IMG/VR virus record: IMGVR_UViG_3300000059_000319
Coordinates: 6,592-70,591 of that record
Origin: a virus
Direction: 5' to 3' (one strand)
Length of the DNA stretch: 64,000 bases
Position 1 is the stretch's first letter. Each line of letters begins with the position of its first letter. Of this stretch, positions 564 to 37,773 are shown one piece after another. The notes under the pieces are model-generated. The model was not told the origin of the DNA. It ran no database searches and worked only from the letters and a program-made list of their open reading frames with translations. A program made the position numbers and the translations under genes.

Positions 564-905
564 ATGGCAAATACAGGATTCAAAATAAAGGTATATAGAG
601 ATACCAACCCTTATTCCCCCACATATAACCAAACTAAAACTGAAAGGATATTAGATACTGATGCATGTCCTAATAATGCACCAGATTGGGTTGAAGTATC
701 AAGAACTTGTAATAAGATAACCTATAATCCATCAGGTGTTCAAGGGAATAATGGTAGGGCAACGATTACTTATGAAGATATGAATATTGACAGTCCAAGC
801 TTTGGACAAACTAAAACTGAAATACATGCAGATTTAACTAATTGTCCATTACCTGATACTACATCTGATTATGAATTACAATCATCAGAATGTGAACAAT
901 TTTAA
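564..905 (+). CDS. Small two-Cys repeat linker protein (DxNPxSPTY repeats)
   Basis: Half repeat + full repeat + half repeat; homologue of 37432..37773. Confidence 0.75.
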   Translation: MANTGFKIKVYRDTNPYSPTYNQTKTERILDTDACPNNAPDWVEVSRTCNKITYNPSGVQGNNGRATITYEDMNIDSPSFGQTKTEIHADLTNCPLPDTTSDYELQSSECEQF

Positions 906-24745: not shown

Positions 24746-27700
24746 ATGTCTAACACAAACAAAAAAGTATATGTATTAGAAATTCAAGGTACAAAGGAAA
24801 GTTATGATGCAATAGTAAACATTAATGATGTGCTTGCATCTATGGATGAACATATTCAGTCAGTTAACAAACAAGAACAAGAACTAAACAAAACCAAAAA
24901 ACAATCAAAACAAGCTACTGATGAATTAACTAAGGTTCAGGAAAAATTGAATCAATATGATGCTGAATACCAACGAGAATTAGCAAAAGCAAAAGCTGCA
25001 TTACAAGAAAAAAATAAAGCCATCCAAGAAGAAGTAAAAGCTGAAAAATTAGCTGAAGGTTCATACTATGCTAAACAGGCTGCATTATCCAAACTTGGTA
25101 AAGAAATAAAATCATATGTAGCTAATACTGATGAAGAAAAACAACAACTTGAAGAAATGAAAGCACAGTATGCTTCATTAAATGATGAGTTGAAAGACTT
25201 CGATAAAACGATGGGAAACCATCAACGTGAGGTTGGTAATTATGCAATAGCTACACAAGGTCTTAAAGAAGAATTAAAAAATCTTGAAGATGAAATGACC
25301 TCACTTCTTGCAAATGGTATATCTACAACTGATGAAGGATTTCAACAATTAGCACATAGGGCAGGTGAAATTAAAGCAGCTATGGATGATGCTAAAAAAG
25401 AAATAGCAGCATTTTCAGATGGTTCTAAAAAAATTAATGATGTTGTAAATATTGCACAATCCCTTACAGCAGGGTTTGGTTTACTACAATCAGCAACAGC
25501 AGCATTTGGTATTGAGAATGAAGAAGTAAATGAAAGCATCCAAAAAATGATGGCTGCTATGACTGCATTACAATCACTTCAACAAATATCATCATCACTT
25601 ACAGATGAAACATCTGCATCCTATAAAATACTAAATAAAGCACTTCAACTATTTGGATTACAGAAAAAACAAAATACTGTTGCATTACAACAAGATACAA
25701 CAGCACAAACAGTTAATGCAACAGCAACAGGTGCAGCAACAGTAGCTACATCAGCTTCAACAACTGCACTTAAAGCTTTTAAAATAGCATTAGCAAGTAC
25801 AGGTGTTGGATTATTAGTTATAGCATTAGGTTATCTGATTGCAAACTTTGATGAGATAAAAAGTAAGGTAGTTGAGTTCTTACCATTCCTTGGTGAAATG
25901 GGTGAATCTTTTGAAAATCTTAAATCTGTGTTAGCAGGTGTTGGTGAAGCAGTCGTTAATTATCTTTTGACCCCAATTAAGACTGTTATAGCTGTTGTTA
26001 AAGGCTTTATGGAAGATGGTATCAAAGGTGCAGTTAAAGCAGGTACAAATGAATTTAAAAAGGGTATTAATGTTATTGATAACTATAAAAAAGGTTATGA
26101 TAAACAAGAAGCTAAAAACCAACAAAATAGAATTAAAGAAAATGCAAAATCACTTGATAAAGAACTAAATGACAAAATCAAAAACCTTGAAGCACAAAAA
26201 GGTAGAGATTTTAAATTTTCAAAAGATGGAATAGAAATATATAAACAATTCTATGCTAATAAGAAAAAATTATATGATAAGGATAGTGATGATTATAAGA
26301 ATGCTGTAAATGAGGAAATTGCATTTTTACGTGAAGTGACTGAACATGAGCAAGCTGAGTTAAAGAAAAGACAAGATGCTTGGAAAGCAGCAGCAGATAA
26401 AAGAAAAGCAGACTTAGAAAAACTGAAAGAAGATACCAAGAAAATTCTTGAAGATACTACCAAATTATATCTTGATAATGAACAAGTAAGATTGGATGCA
26501 CAAAGAAAAGGTATTGAAGATTTAAATGTATATAACCAAGAACAATTAAATTATAAACTTCAACAATTATCTGATATAAATAAAAAACAAGAAGAATTAA
26601 TTCAAAAGAATTTAGATAAAGAACTTGAATTGGTTAAAGAACAATATGATAAACTAATTAAAGAAGCTGAAAAACTTAACCAAGATACCACACAACTTAC
26701 AGATGATTACAATAAGAGAAAGCAGGGATTACAAGATAAAGCTGATGCAGAAAGGTTATCAAGGGAAAAAGAATTAAATAAACAAATTATTCAAGAACAG
26801 GATAAATTAAATAAATATCAAATTGACCAATCACAAAAAACAGTTGATGAAATCAATAAGACCTTAGATAATCAACTGAAAAACATCAAAACCATGAACA
26901 CCAAAACATCTAAAACTGGTGGGTTCTTTAATGTGATTGATGTTGAAAAAACCAAAAAAGATATTGAAGATGCTAAACAAGCATATGATGATTTGGCTAT
27001 ATCATTACTTGAGCAATCAAAGGTAGTTGCACAAGAATATGATAGGCAATTAGCATTAACAGCACAAACATATGGTTCAGATAGTAAAGAATACCAAGAC
27101 CTTTTAAATAAAAAAACATTAGCACTTGATAAATACTTGTCTGATTATAAAGTAGCTAACCAAGCTTCTATGGACTTACAAAAACAAGAAGCTGATTTGA
27201 TGAATGAATATTGGGATAGTGTAAGCCAACAAATTGGTGAAAGATTTAAATTATTAAATGAAGCTATTCTAACACCATTATATGATGCATTCACAGCTTT
27301 AAATGATATGCAACTTGAACAAGCTCAAAAGAATTTAGAAAAAGTACAGAAACTACATGATAAAGCAGTTCAGGAAGTAACAGATAGCCAAAGTAGAATT
27401 GAAGATTTAAATAATTCTATTACTGCTTCTAATGGTCTTAGACGTGACGAACTTGAAAAAACATTAGCTGATGAAGTTCTAATGTTGAAACAAAGGGAAG
27501 CAGAAGAGCAAAGATTAGCAATCGAAACACAAAAGGCAGAAGAAGAAGTTGCAGAAAAAGAACGTGCACAAAGAAAAATGGATGCAGGTAAAAAAATTAT
27601 TGAAGGTGCTATTAATACTGCAATAGCTGTAACTGCTGCTTTACCTAATCTTGTGTTAGCAGGTATTGTTGGTGCTATGGGTGCTGCTTCTACTGCAATA

Positions 27701-28111
27701 GCTGCTGCACAATATGCTAAACTTGAAGATGGTGGTTTACTATCTGGAAAATCTCATAAACAAGGTGGTATGAAGATACAAGGTTCAAATATTGAAGTTG
27801 AAGGTGGTGAATATGTAGTTAATAAAAGAAGTACACAACAATTTTTACCATTATTAGAAAGAATAAATGAATTTGGTAAAAATAAATCCTCATCTATTAC
27901 TTATAATAATATCTATCATAAATATGAAAATGGTGGTCAATTAGATTATGAATTAATAAATAGTAATTTAAATCAAAATAATCCATATAATAAAATGATG
28001 GATAAATTTAATGATGTTACCAATCAACCTATCTTTGTATCAGTAACTGACATTAACAGAGGACAAAACAGAGTAGCAAAAGTGAAAGATATGGCAGGTG
28101 CAACTTATTGA
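24746..28111 (+). CDS. Tape measure protein
   Basis: 1121 aa, long Ala/Gln/Lys helical coiled coil with hydrophobic Ala/Gly segments, C-terminal GG.H.QGG...EVEGGEYVVN motif. Confidence 0.85.
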   Translation: MSNTNKKVYVLEIQGTKESYDAIVNINDVLASMDEHIQSVNKQEQELNKTKKQSKQATDELTKVQEKLNQYDAEYQRELAKAKAALQEKNKAIQEEVKAEKLAEGSYYAKQAALSKLGKEIKSYVANTDEEKQQLEEMKAQYASLNDELKDFDKTMGNHQREVGNYAIATQGLKEELKNLEDEMTSLLANGISTTDEGFQQLAHRAGEIKAAMDDAKKEIAAFSDGSKKINDVVNIAQSLTAGFGLLQSATAAFGIENEEVNESIQKMMAAMTALQSLQQISSSLTDETSASYKILNKALQLFGLQKKQNTVALQQDTTAQTVNATATGAATVATSASTTALKAFKIALASTGVGLLVIALGYLIANFDEIKSKVVEFLPFLGEMGESFENLKSVLAGVGEAVVNYLLTPIKTVIAVVKGFMEDGIKGAVKAGTNEFKKGINVIDNYKKGYDKQEAKNQQNRIKENAKSLDKELNDKIKNLEAQKGRDFKFSKDGIEIYKQFYANKKKLYDKDSDDYKNAVNEEIAFLREVTEHEQAELKKRQDAWKAAADKRKADLEKLKEDTKKILEDTTKLYLDNEQVRLDAQRKGIEDLNVYNQEQLNYKLQQLSDINKKQEELIQKNLDKELELVKEQYDKLIKEAEKLNQDTTQLTDDYNKRKQGLQDKADAERLSREKELNKQIIQEQDKLNKYQIDQSQKTVDEINKTLDNQLKNIKTMNTKTSKTGGFFNVIDVEKTKKDIEDAKQAYDDLAISLLEQSKVVAQEYDRQLALTAQTYGSDSKEYQDLLNKKTLALDKYLSDYKVANQASMDLQKQEADLMNEYWDSVSQQIGERFKLLNEAILTPLYDAFTALNDMQLEQAQKNLEKVQKLHDKAVQEVTDSQSRIEDLNNSITASNGLRRDELEKTLADEVLMLKQREAEEQRLAIETQKAEEEVAEKERAQRKMDAGKKIIEGAINTAIAVTAALPNLVLAGIVGAMGAASTAIAAAQYAKLEDGGLLSGKSHKQGGMKIQGSNIEVEGGEYVVNKRSTQQFLPLLERINEFGKNKSSSITYNNIYHKYENGGQLDYELINSNLNQNNPYNKMMDKFNDVTNQPIFVSVTDINRGQNRVAKVKDMAGATY

Positions 28112-28483
28112 TAATTTTTGATACCTTTATTCATAATTTATAAATCTGAATATTATAAGAGCCTATTTAAATTTTATTTAATAATAGTCTGATATTCATT
28201 ATGTTAAAAATGATGGTCATTTTCAGGTAGTTATGATTGGTATTAAATTAGTGGAAAGATTATGTTTTTCCTCCTTCATTTTCCCACTCTCTATATGGCA
28301 AATATTTTAATATAATTCACAATAATAAATACTCATATTAAAAATTTGATTTATAATTGATTAGATTTAAAATATGAAATTAGAAAAAGTGACCAAAATA
28401 AATAAATTTAATGTAAGTGGTTGATTATCAATTTAAGGTTCGAGAACTATTCATTCTTGTATCTTTTTTCTGATAAGGTAAAT

Positions 28484-28513
28484 AAAAAGGGTCTGATAGT
28501 TCAAGACCCTTTT
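28484..28513. terminator. Bidirectional terminator downstream of the integrase
   Basis: AAAAGGGTCT-GATAGTTCA-AGACCCTTTT. Confidence 0.7.
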
Positions 28514-28598
28514 GTCTGTTAAATAAGCTACTTCTTATTCGATTTCTGACAGTTTAATATTATTTCTGACCAAATATATTATTGAATAAAATACTAAT

Positions 28599-29801
28599 TT
28601 ATAATGCGATTTTCTTATTTAAATTTTTCATATTTTCCTTTATAGTGCTATTCATTATTTTAGCATACCTTTGGGTCATTCTGCTGTTGGTGTGACCCAT
28701 CATAGCCTGTACAGAAGATAAATCAACATTATTATTTAGTGATACTGTTGCAAATGTGTGACGTGCTAAATGAAAGTGTAATTCTTTCTTAATCCCACAT
28801 ATATTACCAATTTCTTTTAAATATGCATTAACCTTTTGATTACTACACACAGGTAAACGAAAATGATAATCACTATTATTATATTTGGTTACAATATCTT
28901 CTGCTATTGGTAATAAGGGAATGCTTGACATAATATTAGTTTTCTCCCTTTTTTTCATTATCCACTTATCACCATTATCATCAAATACTATATGTTCATC
29001 AAATTTAAGTTCATTACAATCTATGTAAGCAAGACCTGTCAGACAGCTAAAAATGAATATATCCCTTACACAATTAAGTCTATGATTACCAAAATCTTTA
29101 TTATATATTTTCTTTATTTCATTCATAGTTAAATAACCTATATCTACTTTTTCAAGTGATAATCTAATATTTGCAAATGGGTTATTGGGTATTATACCAT
29201 CATTCCAAGCTATTAGACATATCTTCTTTAAATTCTTCATATAGTTAATTGATGTATTGTGACCAATTTTTAGTGTGGTTCTTATATAGTTGAACCAACC
29301 ATCAAGAAATGATTTATTGATTTCAACCATTTCTATATCAGTTCTATTATACTTTTCTTTTAGATAAGCTTTAAGATGGGTTAGGGTGGTCATGTGTTTT
29401 TGCCATGCAGCATATGATACACCATTTTTCTTATATAATGCTTCATATTCATCATTATGTTTTTGATATAGTTTTACAAGTGATGTATCACGTTCATCAA
29501 TTTTACCTTGAAACATATCTTTAATAGTATGAATATTTACAGGTATGTTTTTCATTAATAGCTTAGACTGACATTCATATAATTTCAATCTTGATAGGTT
29601 GATGAAGTTGTTGAACTCGATAGATAATTCATCATCACCAATTGCAATCTGTTGTTCTTGTAACCATTTATCAGGTTCTATTTTTCTTGGTAGTGTTAGG
29701 ATTGTTCTTTCTTTGTTAATAGTAATGGCTACTTCAAGTGGTGCAAAGCCTTGTTTGTTTACTTTGGTTTGTCTAACTGTAAAAAATAAATTGAAATTCA
29801 T
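28599..29801 (-). CDS. int: Tyrosine site-specific integrase (Bacteroidota arm-binding + SAM-like type)
   Basis: RDIFIFSCLTGLAYID, HLARHTFAT, MGH, TQRYAK catalytic motifs. Confidence 0.95.
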   Translation of the reverse strand: MNFNLFFTVRQTKVNKQGFAPLEVAITINKERTILTLPRKIEPDKWLQEQQIAIGDDELSIEFNNFINLSRLKLYECQSKLLMKNIPVNIHTIKDMFQGKIDERDTSLVKLYQKHNDEYEALYKKNGVSYAAWQKHMTTLTHLKAYLKEKYNRTDIEMVEINKSFLDGWFNYIRTTLKIGHNTSINYMKNLKKICLIAWNDGIIPNNPFANIRLSLEKVDIGYLTMNEIKKIYNKDFGNHRLNCVRDIFIFSCLTGLAYIDCNELKFDEHIVFDDNGDKWIMKKREKTNIMSSIPLLPIAEDIVTKYNNSDYHFRLPVCSNQKVNAYLKEIGNICGIKKELHFHLARHTFATVSLNNNVDLSSVQAMMGHTNSRMTQRYAKIMNSTIKENMKNLNKKIAL

Positions 29802-29971
29802 AACAATAATGATTTTAAATTATTAATTATGAGTTTCTTATATTCTATATTTTTATAAAAGCGTTATTTAAATTATTGATTGTTTTAATAATGGCAACTA
29901 CTTAAATAGTGGTTAAGTGACTGTACATCACAAAAGTTCACTATAAGTTGCAGGTCCATAATACCATTTCA

Positions 29972-29989
29972 GAATCCCTCTCTCTCCGC
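29972..29989 (+). other. att core: 3' end of a tRNA-Ser (GAATCCCTCTCTCTCCGC)
   Basis: Matches a T-loop/T-stem/acceptor 3' strand; no 5' tRNA half upstream; 170 bp from the integrase start; ATTGTTTTAATAATG repeated at 29879 and 30273. Confidence 0.75.
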
Positions 29990-30026
29990 TTAGAACGTTG
30001 TAAATGAAGACGTTACACAAATTATT

Positions 30027-30052
30027 AAGCAACCTTTGGGTTGCTTTTTTTT
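30027..30052 (+). terminator. Intrinsic terminator downstream of att core
   Basis: AAGCAACC-TTT-GGGTTGCTT followed by a T run. Confidence 0.75.
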
Positions 30053-30470
30053 ATGTGTTAGATTATAGAAATGTGTTGTTTATCAATTGATTAGTTAATA
30101 ATTTGTTATAACTAATTGATAATTCTCACCCCCTTAACCTCACCCTTCAACGGTTTTCATTTAAAGCTAATAAGTATTCCACACTTAATATAGCCGATAT
30201 AGTGCTATCTAATTGGTCTACACCTAATTGGCTTTAACGGACTTTTACCCCAAAATACCATTATAATAATCAATTGTTTTAATAATGCAACAATTAAAAC
30301 AATACAATTACATTAAAGAACTCATTTAAATATCTGTATCAAAGATAATTAAAGTTGCTCACTCCACCAAAAAACATGCTCACTAATGACAGAAAAGTGT
30401 TCACTTTCTTTGTTCACCCCCCTATTTTTTAAATTATTCCAATAAACAGATAATAAAAAGTTCTTATTCA

Positions 30471-30488
30471 AATCTTTATTATAAAAAG
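30471..30488 (+). promoter_or_regulatory. Late-promoter-like motif ahead of the head module
   Basis: AATCTTTATTATAAAAAG 30 nt before the protease ATG. Confidence 0.7.
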
Positions 30489-30500
30489 GTTATAAGAACT

Positions 30501-31052
30501 ATGAAGAAACTACCAATCTATGATGTTATTCTAACTGATGAAGATTTAGGAATGACAGCAGTAAGTTTTGTTGATGAACCTGCAATAGAAGAATTGTTTG
30601 TAGCCTTCAATAATGACCAAATAATGATGGCAAGTGATAAGCAAGAAGTAGTATCACCAATCTTAATACCTGACCAAGAAATTTACAGATGTGATAAAAC
30701 CACAGGAAAAGAATTTTTTATCAGATGGTCAGTAGAAACAATAGATGCAGTTGCTGTACAATACCTATTGAATCAGTTCAACAATAACACTACCATAATG
30801 CACCCACAATTTTATGATAAGAATTTGAAGTTAGAAGATTGTTTGGTTGATGATGTGTATTTAAAGCGTATGTGGATAATTGAGGATGCAAAGACAGATA
30901 TAATTAATACCAAGTATGGTTATAGTTTACCTGTTGGTACATTATGTACACACTACAAGATTCATAACAAACATCTATGGCAAAGGATAAAGAAGGGTGA
31001 ATTGAAAGGTTTATCAATCGAAGCATTTATGAGTATGGTTAAGGCTCAATAA
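30501..31052 (+). CDS. Prohead protease (XkdF-like)
   Basis: AVSFVDEPAIE, PILIPDQ.IYR, W..IK.GELKGLSIEAF motifs; first gene of the head module. Confidence 0.7.
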   Translation: MKKLPIYDVILTDEDLGMTAVSFVDEPAIEELFVAFNNDQIMMASDKQEVVSPILIPDQEIYRCDKTTGKEFFIRWSVETIDAVAVQYLLNQFNNNTTIMHPQFYDKNLKLEDCLVDDVYLKRMWIIEDAKTDIINTKYGYSLPVGTLCTHYKIHNKHLWQRIKKGELKGLSIEAFMSMVKAQ

Positions 31053-31079
31053 TAAAAATAAAAACACAAAAATAATACT

Positions 31080-31787
31080 ATGAACAAAAAGAAAATGAGT
31101 GTATTAAACAAGCTGATTACATTTTTAAATGATGTAACAGATGAAGCAGAAGCGATAATTGATGTTGCAGAAGTAGATACTACTGATAGTGGTGAAGTTA
31201 CATTAAGCTATACATTAGATAGTGGTGATGTAGTTACAGTTGATGCAGAAAAATTTGTACGTGATGCAAATATGGAATTATTAGAAGAAGGTAGTTATTT
31301 ACTTGAAGATGGTAATTTCTTAGTTGTAGATGCAGAAGGTAAGATTGTAGAAACAGTTGAAGAAGTTGCTGATGAATCAGCAGGTGAAGAAGCACCGATT
31401 GCAGAACGCAAAAATAAAAAAGTAGGACAAAAGAAAGTTACTAAAATTAAACAATCCAAGATTAGAAAAGGAATTAAACAAGAAGATGAAGTATCAGAAG
31501 ATGTAGTAGAAGATGAAAAAGTTACTATTACTATTGATGGTGTTGATTATGAAGTTGATAAAGCTGTTGCTGATTATATTAAGAAATTGGAAGGTGAAGT
31601 TGAAGTATCAGATGCAGAGATTGAACAATTTAAAACTAAGGTAAATAAATTTAAAAGTGAGGTATCACAATTAAAATCAAAATTACCAAGTGGAAAATTT
31701 GTATCAGAAGTAAAATCTGTAAATCAAAGTAAAGAAATGAGTGTTGAAGCATCTATTGCAAATGCACTTTCAAAAATGCGTAAATAA
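31080..31787 (+). CDS. Capsid scaffold-like protein
   Basis: Acidic, L..G.Y.LEDG..LVV..EG.I repeat-like motif, coiled-coil end; between protease and capsid. Confidence 0.6.
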   Translation: MNKKKMSVLNKLITFLNDVTDEAEAIIDVAEVDTTDSGEVTLSYTLDSGDVVTVDAEKFVRDANMELLEEGSYLLEDGNFLVVDAEGKIVETVEEVADESAGEEAPIAERKNKKVGQKKVTKIKQSKIRKGIKQEDEVSEDVVEDEKVTITIDGVDYEVDKAVADYIKKLEGEVEVSDAEIEQFKTKVNKFKSEVSQLKSKLPSGKFVSEVKSVNQSKEMSVEASIANALSKMRK

Positions 31788-31860
31788 TTTAATAAAAAAG
31801 GTTTACCAAAATCTTTATTATAAAGACACAAACAATAAAAAGAAAAACACAAAACAACAT

Positions 31861-32814
31861 ATGGCAAATTTAATTGATGCAAGTGCTATTGAATATACAT
31901 GTTTAGAGAATCGTGAATATTTCGTAAAAGCAATTAGAAAAGGTAACACATTAGCGAATAACTACATACGTGTATTACCAAATGTAACAAAAGAAACAAG
32001 AGTAAAGAAATTAGTATTGAATGGTGCAACTGTATCACAGGTTGATACACGTGATTGTGCATGGACACCAACCCAAAGAATTACAATAACTGACAAATTA
32101 ATGAAAGTAAATAACTTTAAAATTAATGAAGCTCAGTGTTTAGAAGACTTAGATAATTTGTATTCTGAAATGTTGTATTCAAGTGGTGCAAACAAAACTG
32201 AATTACCTGAAGGTTTAGAATCGGTTGTAATGCAACAAATTCAAGCATCATTAGGTAATGATATTGAAAAAATAATTTGGGGTGGTGCAGGTCAAGCAGT
32301 TGATGGTGTACAAGATGGTATTGTTGATAAATCATTAGCAGATGCATCTACTATTAAAATAACAGGTACTGCATTAAACACAGGTAATATTTTATCTGAA
32401 ATAGCAAAAGTATATGATGCTATACCAAATGAAGTAATTGGTGAAGGATGGTTTGACCCTGAACGTGCTGCTGTAAGAATCTTTGTAGATATGAACGCTT
32501 ACAGAATGTTAAGAACTGCATTAGGAACTACACCAACTGATGTACAAGTATTGTTACCAAATTGGACAATCGAAGGTGGTAAATTCTATTACTTAGGTAT
32601 TGAAATTGCTTTGGTTGGATTACCACAAAATACTATTGTTGCAGGTTCTTATGATAACTTAGTATTCTTAACTGACTTGTTATCTGATACTACTTCATTA
32701 CGTGCACAGGTTGGTAATGACTTTGAAGATGAAAATATTTGGAAAGTAAAAGGTAAATATCGTGCTAATGCTGATTATATCTTTGGTGATGAAATAGTTA
32801 TCTATTCAGTATAA
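31861..32814 (+). CDS. Major capsid protein (likely start MANLID)
   Basis: Size, position, I..DIEKIIWGG, promoter motif at 31810; track start 31741 overlaps the scaffold. Confidence 0.75.
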   Translation: MANLIDASAIEYTCLENREYFVKAIRKGNTLANNYIRVLPNVTKETRVKKLVLNGATVSQVDTRDCAWTPTQRITITDKLMKVNNFKINEAQCLEDLDNLYSEMLYSSGANKTELPEGLESVVMQQIQASLGNDIEKIIWGGAGQAVDGVQDGIVDKSLADASTIKITGTALNTGNILSEIAKVYDAIPNEVIGEGWFDPERAAVRIFVDMNAYRMLRTALGTTPTDVQVLLPNWTIEGGKFYYLGIEIALVGLPQNTIVAGSYDNLVFLTDLLSDTTSLRAQVGNDFEDENIWKVKGKYRANADYIFGDEIVIYSV

Positions 32815-37431: not shown

Positions 37432-37773
37432 ATGGCAAATACAGGATATAAAATAAAGAAATACTTAGATACCAATCCATATTCACCGAGTTATGGAACT
37501 ACCAAAACTGAACGTATATATGCACCTGATGAATGTGTTGATGATGCACCTGCATGGTCAGAGATTAGCAGGGTGTGTAATAAGATAAATTATCAACCAA
37601 GTGGTGTAGCAGGTAATGATGGTAAAGCAACAGTTACATATGAAGATATTAATATTGATTCTCCATCATTTGGAACTACCAAAGTAGAAATAGTTAGTGA
37701 TTTATCTTCATGTCCATTACCAAATAAAACGGCTGATTGGGAATTACAAAATAGTGAATGTGAAGTTGAATAA
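37432..37773 (+). CDS. Small two-Cys repeat linker protein
   Basis: Homologue of 564..905. Confidence 0.75.
   Translation: MANTGYKIKKYLDTNPYSPSYGTTKTERIYAPDECVDDAPAWSEISRVCNKINYQPSGVAGNDGKATVTYEDINIDSPSFGTTKVEIVSDLSSCPLPNKTADWELQNSECEVE

Follow-up and report, generated by a model that had tools for sequence, protein, structure and literature searches.

The locus studied here raises the question of how two related phage genomes came to be joined across a short copy of a tRNA-Ser 3′ end, and whether that join belongs to a bacterial chromosome, to a free replicon, or to a faulty assembly. The source record is an IMG/VR provirus of 75,384 bp in a single contig with 28% GC, and its bases 6592-70591 make up the 64-kb stretch analysed here, hereafter called the window. 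IMG/VR classes the record as a provirus and not as circular. Its first base is the ATG of the first gene of one unit (A), and its last base is the start codon of the integrase of the other (B). Ends at gene edges are as expected from provirus trimming, and this trimming accounts for the absence of the outer att sites from the record. The host is an insect-gut member of the Bacteroidales that has not been cultured. The two units and their integrases are as follows.

Window 1-29801, beginning 6,591 bp before the window, + strand: unit A (prophage A), about 37 kb, collinear with B.
Window 30501-64000, continuing 4,793 bp past the window, + strand: unit B (prophage B), about 39 kb, ending at the start codon of its integrase.
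Window 28599-29801, − strand: integrase of A (intA), 400 aa, IntDOT-type tyrosine recombinase (PF17293, PF13102, PF00589).
Record 74194-75384, − strand: integrase of B (intB), IntDOT-type (PF17293, PF13102, PF00589).

A blastn comparison of the whole record with itself gave a single collinear diagonal at an offset of 36-39.7 kb with 66-81% nucleotide identity. Unit A, at record bases 1-36392, is collinear with unit B, at 37092-75384, and their DNA is about 70% identical. An earlier reading, made from the window sequence only, had stated that homologous genes recur with a period of 37-39 kb; the diagonal bears this out, as do the two gene pairs that it had named. The products of window 564-905 and 37432-37773 share 68% of their residues, and the 1121-aa gene at 24746 is 65% identical to a 1126-aa gene starting at window 63677. 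Across the 34 A-B gene pairs, protein identity ranges from 28 to 82% and is mostly 55-75%, and the genes private to one unit are clustered in the middle of the units, in the early region. Both A and B have genes for an XkdF-type prohead protease, a large terminase, a portal-like protein, and a virion structural protein, together with tail-fibre-like proteins and a tape-measure-like protein. A and B are two complete phage genomes, adjacent to each other in direct orientation and with an integrase apiece, which is the arrangement that defines tandem prophages. The terminase is less than 33% identical to any of 50,697 phage records, which indicates an uncultured lineage; by such sequence comparison, A and B are without close cultured relatives.

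Two side observations concern the units as catalogued. The first gene of A is one ORF of 432 aa (XkdF protease plus a C-terminal part; L003 1-1299), and the same place in B is occupied by two ORFs of 183 and 235 aa (window 30501-31052 and 31080-31787); this is either a fusion/split difference between the sisters or a break in B. The 75-kb record was scored by CheckV and IMG/VR as a single provirus, 100% complete, despite its two phage genomes. Tandem prophages can therefore inflate the genome-size and completeness statistics of virus catalogues.

Both integrases have the domains Arm-DNA-bind_5 (PF17293), Phage_int_SAM_5 (PF13102), and Phage_integrase (PF00589) on record, and the HxxR and C-terminal RY motifs are legible in their translations. 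Judged by its domains, intA belongs to a type that is typical of Bacteroidota. The two proteins are 82.5% identical, and their N-terminal arm-binding regions are nearly identical.

Between intA and the first gene of B lie 699 bp (window 29802-30500) without a credible ORF. The following features were located in this junction.

Window 29802-29971, + strand: integrase-side (left) att arm of A; in an alignment with its counterparts from B and from a related provirus (L129), a block ending in GCAAC is conserved.
Window 29879-29893, + strand: first copy of the 15-mer ATTGTTTTAATAATG, a candidate arm-type integrase site, inside a block conserved among left arms.
Window 29972-29989, + strand: 18-bp core GAATCCCTCTCTCTCCGC, identical to the last 18 nt of tRNA-Ser.
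Window 29990-30500, + strand: right att arm of B on the side of gene 1, homologous to, and diverged from, the arm upstream of the first gene of A (L008).
Window 30027-30046, + strand: terminator-like hairpin, 38 nt past the core, with equivalents in the right arm of A and in the 128-nt flank beyond B.
Window 30273-30303, + strand: second copy of the 15-mer (30273-30287) and, nine bases on, an inverted 11-nt partner (30293-30303).

The core GAATCCCTCTCTCTCCGC occurs once in the record and corresponds to the tRNA-Ser 3′ end in Bacteroidota. It comprises the 3′ part of the T-loop, the 3′ strands of the T-stem and the acceptor stem, the discriminator, and one base more. The sequence-only reading had placed an integrase and an 18-bp tRNA-Ser 3′ end between the units, and the coordinates of intA and of the core agree with it. 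ARAGORN detected no whole tRNA in the window. The related provirus (IMGVR_UViG_2910949487_000003; L129 1447-2800) has an integrase with 62% identity and carries the same 18-bp core at the same distance from it as here (about 190 bp), indicating that the targeting of this tRNA-Ser end is a family trait. As judged by reading its sequence, the DNA past the core of this provirus is GC-richer and ends in a putative transposase-like ORF.

The 15-mer ATTGTTTTAATAATG has exactly two occurrences in the window, located 93 bp to the left and 284 bp to the right of the core in blocks conserved among the arms; a 15-bp repeat flanking the core had already been pointed out from the sequence, and it is present at 29879 and 30273 as described. 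When the 699-bp junction was simulated 2000 times with a first-order Markov model, 0.45% of the simulations produced an exact direct repeat of at least 15 nt. With up to two mismatches allowed, the counts of the 15-mer in the window were not above chance. The 15-mer is a plausible candidate for an arm-type integrase site. The right arms also contain short direct repeats just upstream of gene 1 (window 30355-30420; L008 300-350), B having G[CT]TCAC[TC] four times and A having CAGTCACT three times; these are possible regulator sites. The hairpin at 30027-30046 would end the tRNA transcript if B directly adjoins the tRNA. Each tRNA-proximal arm supplies a terminator hairpin of its own, and the tRNA gene would thereby remain expressible.

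The arms support the view that window 29802-30500 is an internal hybrid site, in which attR of A would be fused to attL of B. On this view, phage DNA on either side of the core gives the junction the look of an attP, but the two arms come from two different phages. A hybrid also fits the observation that the arms at the junction differ from the right arm found next to the first gene of A (L008) and from the left arm found next to intB (L005), both described below. Pairwise, the arms of A and B are homologous and have diverged much as the remainder of the two genomes has. Pattern scans of viral and metagenome contigs revealed no independent A-only or B-only genome or attP. In these scans, the first 43 nt of A had no match in viral or metagenome contigs, the left arm of A plus core and the left arm of B plus core had none in viral contigs, and a degenerate pattern spanning attL and attR had none in metagenome contigs.

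The reliability of the join was examined through the words that the two units have in common. Exact words common to A and B reach at most 55 nt, and the longest lies in the middle of the units, far from the junction; in the junction and next to it, A and B have no exact word of at least 21 nt in common. The core of 13-18 bp is below any assembler word size; a de Bruijn graph therefore cannot cross from A to B there. The sequence-only reading had asserted that the repetition of genes is not an assembly duplication, and this holds, with units about 70% identical and no such shared word at the junction. A 105-kb MEGAHIT contig (ENA assembly ERZ27241893) carries the junction and is identical over 12.4 kb, and run X1 contains 99% of the 31-mers that were sampled from window 27500-32500. 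The junction was found in three differently built assemblies, which rules out a quirk of one assembler; these assemblies probably share the source sample and are not independent biological replicates.

The 105-kb contig has a 112-bp insertion that is missing from the record (L001 135-251; approximately window 31042-31046). It has 36% GC and predicted hairpins, sits between the protease gene of B and the next gene, and had no match among the sequences compared. Since the ENA contig joins the junction to this variant of B, at least two B genotypes are joined to A. In the ENA assembly, B is fragmented and polymorphic, with the 112-bp indel and a 99.7% identical variant.

The outer ends of the units were found on contigs outside the record. 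A Logan contig of run SRR4051758 (L008) contains record bases 1-1287 without differences and adds 469 bp upstream. It starts with TCCGGGGGTTC, followed by the 18-bp core (L008 12-29) and by a 440-bp AT-rich arm that leads to the first gene of A. The eleven bases before the core belong to the T-stem and T-loop of a tRNA. A 29-nt tRNA-Ser 3′ end, T-arm included, lies about 440 bp upstream of the first gene of A and about 7.0 kb before the window. The 29-mer (TCCGGGGGTTC plus core) is present at no fewer than 120 genome loci, almost all in Bacteroidota; it forms the 3′ end of tRNA-Ser at 116 of 120 loci, and the anticodon is UGA at 113. From the window alone, an intact tRNA-Ser had been predicted about 7 kb upstream: the 3′ end is at that place, and we infer the intactness of the gene from its last 29 nt. 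On the other side, an ENA contig (L005) is 99.99% identical to the record over its final 11.2 kb and extends 319 bp past it, through the integrase-side arm of B, a 13-bp core CCTCTCTCTCCGC, the bases CA that complete CCA, and 128 nt of further DNA. This 128-nt right flank has 39% GC and its own hairpin terminator and does not match anything in the record. A second integrase and core had also been expected downstream; the integrase lies 3.6-4.8 kb past the window, and the core is about 190 bp further. Both flank predictions were set beforehand as refutation tests, and their agreement with contigs outside the record supports the first reading of the locus.

The three cores (in L008, in the window, and in the 13-bp version of L005) are direct repeats in the same orientation, and the three sites are identical over the 13-bp common core. 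Aligned on the core, they read tRNA/core/A right arm, A left arm/core/B right arm, and B left arm/core/other DNA, which is how a pair of tandemly integrated prophages is built. They were read on separate contigs (record, Logan, and ENA), apparently from the same sample.

We consider it likely that A and B form a chromosomal head-to-tail tandem array at the 3′ end of one tRNA-Ser gene. The layout would be tRNA-Ser, core, A right arm, A genes, intA, A left arm, core, B right arm, B genes, intB, B left arm, core, and further DNA. Such an array would arise through site-specific recombination by IntDOT-type integrases recognising the same 13-18-bp tRNA-Ser core. A could have integrated into the regenerated tRNA adjoining a resident B, B could have integrated into attR of a resident A, or a pre-formed A+B dimer could have integrated as a whole. 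As the three sites do not differ anywhere in the 13-bp common core, these three routes give identical products. The attempt to read the order of arrival from the core sequences was abandoned for this reason, and the earlier suggestion that A, being nearer to the tRNA, is the newer arrival does not follow. With three directly repeated sites and similar integrases, excision of A, B, or A+B would be possible. Each of these events is plausible given the 82% identity of the integrases and the nearly identical arm-binding regions.

The tandem arrangement could also have been produced by homologous recombination between a resident phage and a superinfecting relative. The junction would then be the intact attP of one phage, and the A/B boundaries would lie inside genes. 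The only exact 15-mer common to the arms links the left arm of A with the right arm of B, a hint of this route, and the matching blocks in the right arm of A and the left arm of B are more diverged. A homologous route was also judged plausible for tandem prophages of M. abscessus (PMC9934374). However, units with about 70% identity and a longest common exact word of 55 nt are a poor substrate for RecA, and the arm comparisons are weakly informative in DNA of 25% GC, in which other arm pairs reach 13-15 of 16 matches. At this level of identity, homologous recombination is less likely than the integrase route, and we regard it as an unlikely origin of the array.

A further alternative is that the junction derives mainly from an extrachromosomal circular co-integrate of A and B (a 76-kb dimer), with the outer ends contributed by single lysogens. 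The outer ends and the junction were indeed read on different contigs, and several genotypes coexist (the 112-bp indel and the 99.7% identical variant of B). However, such a circle requires a second junction, consisting of the left arm of B, the core, and the right arm of A, and this was present in no contig. The record is classed as a provirus that is not circular, and both outer ends have the arms expected of a chromosomal array. A co-integrate replicon had been raised in the sequence-only reading; its standing is now lower, as ends joined to a tRNA and to non-phage DNA exist, albeit on separate contigs, and we consider this explanation quite improbable. Least credible of all is a chimera in which prophages or phages from other cells or loci were fused by the assembler at the shared tRNA core, since, although the sample is a metagenome of mixed strains and all junction-bearing assemblies possibly derive from it, the 13-18-bp core is too short for an assembler, no word of 21 nt or more is shared near the junction, three differently built assemblies contain the join, and its 31-mers are present in the run.

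Relatives of the 128-nt flank (L005 1-128) were sought among 401 sampled Bacteroidales genomes. A single full-length relative was found in genome G135, where it is 76% identical from the first base and is located directly after a tRNA-Ser(GCU) gene. About 130 bp further, G135 (C49 3679-5393, L191) has genes for a Mob_Pre relaxase and for an integrase of the IntDOT type that shares 36% identity with intA. From these genes, the G135 element is identified as integrative-mobilizable, with its integrase adjoining the tRNA. A second copy in G135 (C23 9680-9812, L190) is 75% identical and follows a bare 13-bp core CCTCTCTCTCCGC without a tRNA, which is the arrangement at the end of B. The stretch was absent from the 96 other searched genomes of the family of G135, and a pattern composed of the core and the right flank had no match in genome contigs.

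The right flank was also considered as plain host chromosome, that is, as a marker of a tRNA-Ser(GCU) locus. This reading was rejected because the stretch in G135 sits between the tRNA and the integrase and relaxase genes, because its second copy follows a bare core, and because it is absent from the 96 family members. On the simplest interpretation, which is somewhat more likely than not, the flank would be the tRNA-proximal arm of a third integrated element, of which 128 nt are visible; the stack would then consist of at least three elements. Bacteroidales may repeatedly have acquired stacks of elements at tRNA-Ser ends.

At the left end, a T precedes the T-stem; 12 of the 15 UGA genes have T at this position, and none of the 13 GCU or CGA genes does, which favours the UGA isoacceptor at the end of A. 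Against UGA, the only relative of the right flank adjoins a GCU gene; this conflict is removed if the right flank is mobile DNA. The two kinds of tRNA-Ser 3′ end are one base apart in the last 28 nt, so that related elements can use either. In Bacteroidales tRNA-Ser genes with UGA, GCU, CGA, and GGA anticodons (L146-L181), the last 28 nt are nearly the same, with one C/T difference. A genome therefore offers several near-identical targets to a single integrase specificity. In some Bacteroidales genomes, a UGA gene lies next to a CGA gene. Integration of A and B into two adjacent tRNA-Ser genes with a later deletion was considered and is without support; the adjacent pairs inspected were UGA and CGA genes (two UGA genes at one locus), with unrelated flanks.

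We also put forward, as a tentative and rather doubtful generalization, that the tRNA-Ser 3′ end in these Bacteroidales is a stacking site at which hybrid junctions let integrases swap att arms and whole genome halves between sister phages, or let a phage be excised together with its neighbour. If this were true, sister phages would pile up serially at this end along with an integrative-mobilizable element, all of them having IntDOT-type integrases with a common specificity, and there would be site-specific module shuffling and phage-assisted mobilization in gut Bacteroidales. Apart from this generalization, the locus documents that two diverged phage relatives can share one tRNA site, as a case of polylysogeny in a gut lineage of Bacteroidales that is uncultured, and it provides defined att sites for probing the cross-reactivity of two 82% identical integrases.

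Several known systems can be compared with this array. In tandem dilysogens of phage lambda, one attB holds a resident phage genome and, beside it, a second one; an att junction between phage and phage lies inside the pair, and the two genomes are usually identical or near-identical. In contrast, A and B are about 30% diverged, and their internal site is thus a true hybrid. The conjugative transposon CTnDOT uses loosely specific sites. The integrases of A and B share the three domains of CTnDOT-type (IntDOT-family) integrases, consistent with a Bacteroidota host, but they are phage integrases aimed at a tRNA-Ser 3′ end.

The closest counterpart is the pair prophiT36-2a and prophiT36-2b of M. 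abscessus, two different complete prophages that share one tRNA attB in direct orientation, encode a tyrosine integrase apiece, and are bounded by attL(a), a hybrid attR(a)/attL(b), and attR(b) (PMC9934374). Which of them integrated first is ambiguous, and a site-specific as well as a homologous route was weighed; they belong to different clusters, have integration-dependent immunity, and were each shown by PCR to excise (PMC9934374). A and B resemble this pair in sharing one tRNA attB with a hybrid internal junction and in the ambiguity of order and route. They differ in that they are collinear sisters with IntDOT-type integrases from an uncultured Bacteroidales bacterium and are known from sequence alone.

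Site-specific accretion at tRNA or other att sites is also well described for ICEs, IMEs, and CIMEs (PMC5704250). It leads to tandem arrays in which direct repeats of the core mark the boundaries and excision follows complex patterns (PMC5704250, PMC13651849), and it has recently been extended to phage-ICE tandems in 135 species (PMC13651849). The array of A and B is of this form, and a probable IME-type arm beyond B fits it; unlike ICE/IME accretion, both demonstrated members here are phages, and the third element is deduced from 128 nt. The locus is a further example of established accretion at a tRNA att site and not a new kind of system. What is new is the 128-nt right flank, which is probably not plain chromosome. 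The value of the locus lies in being a clean example of a mechanism that is already established.
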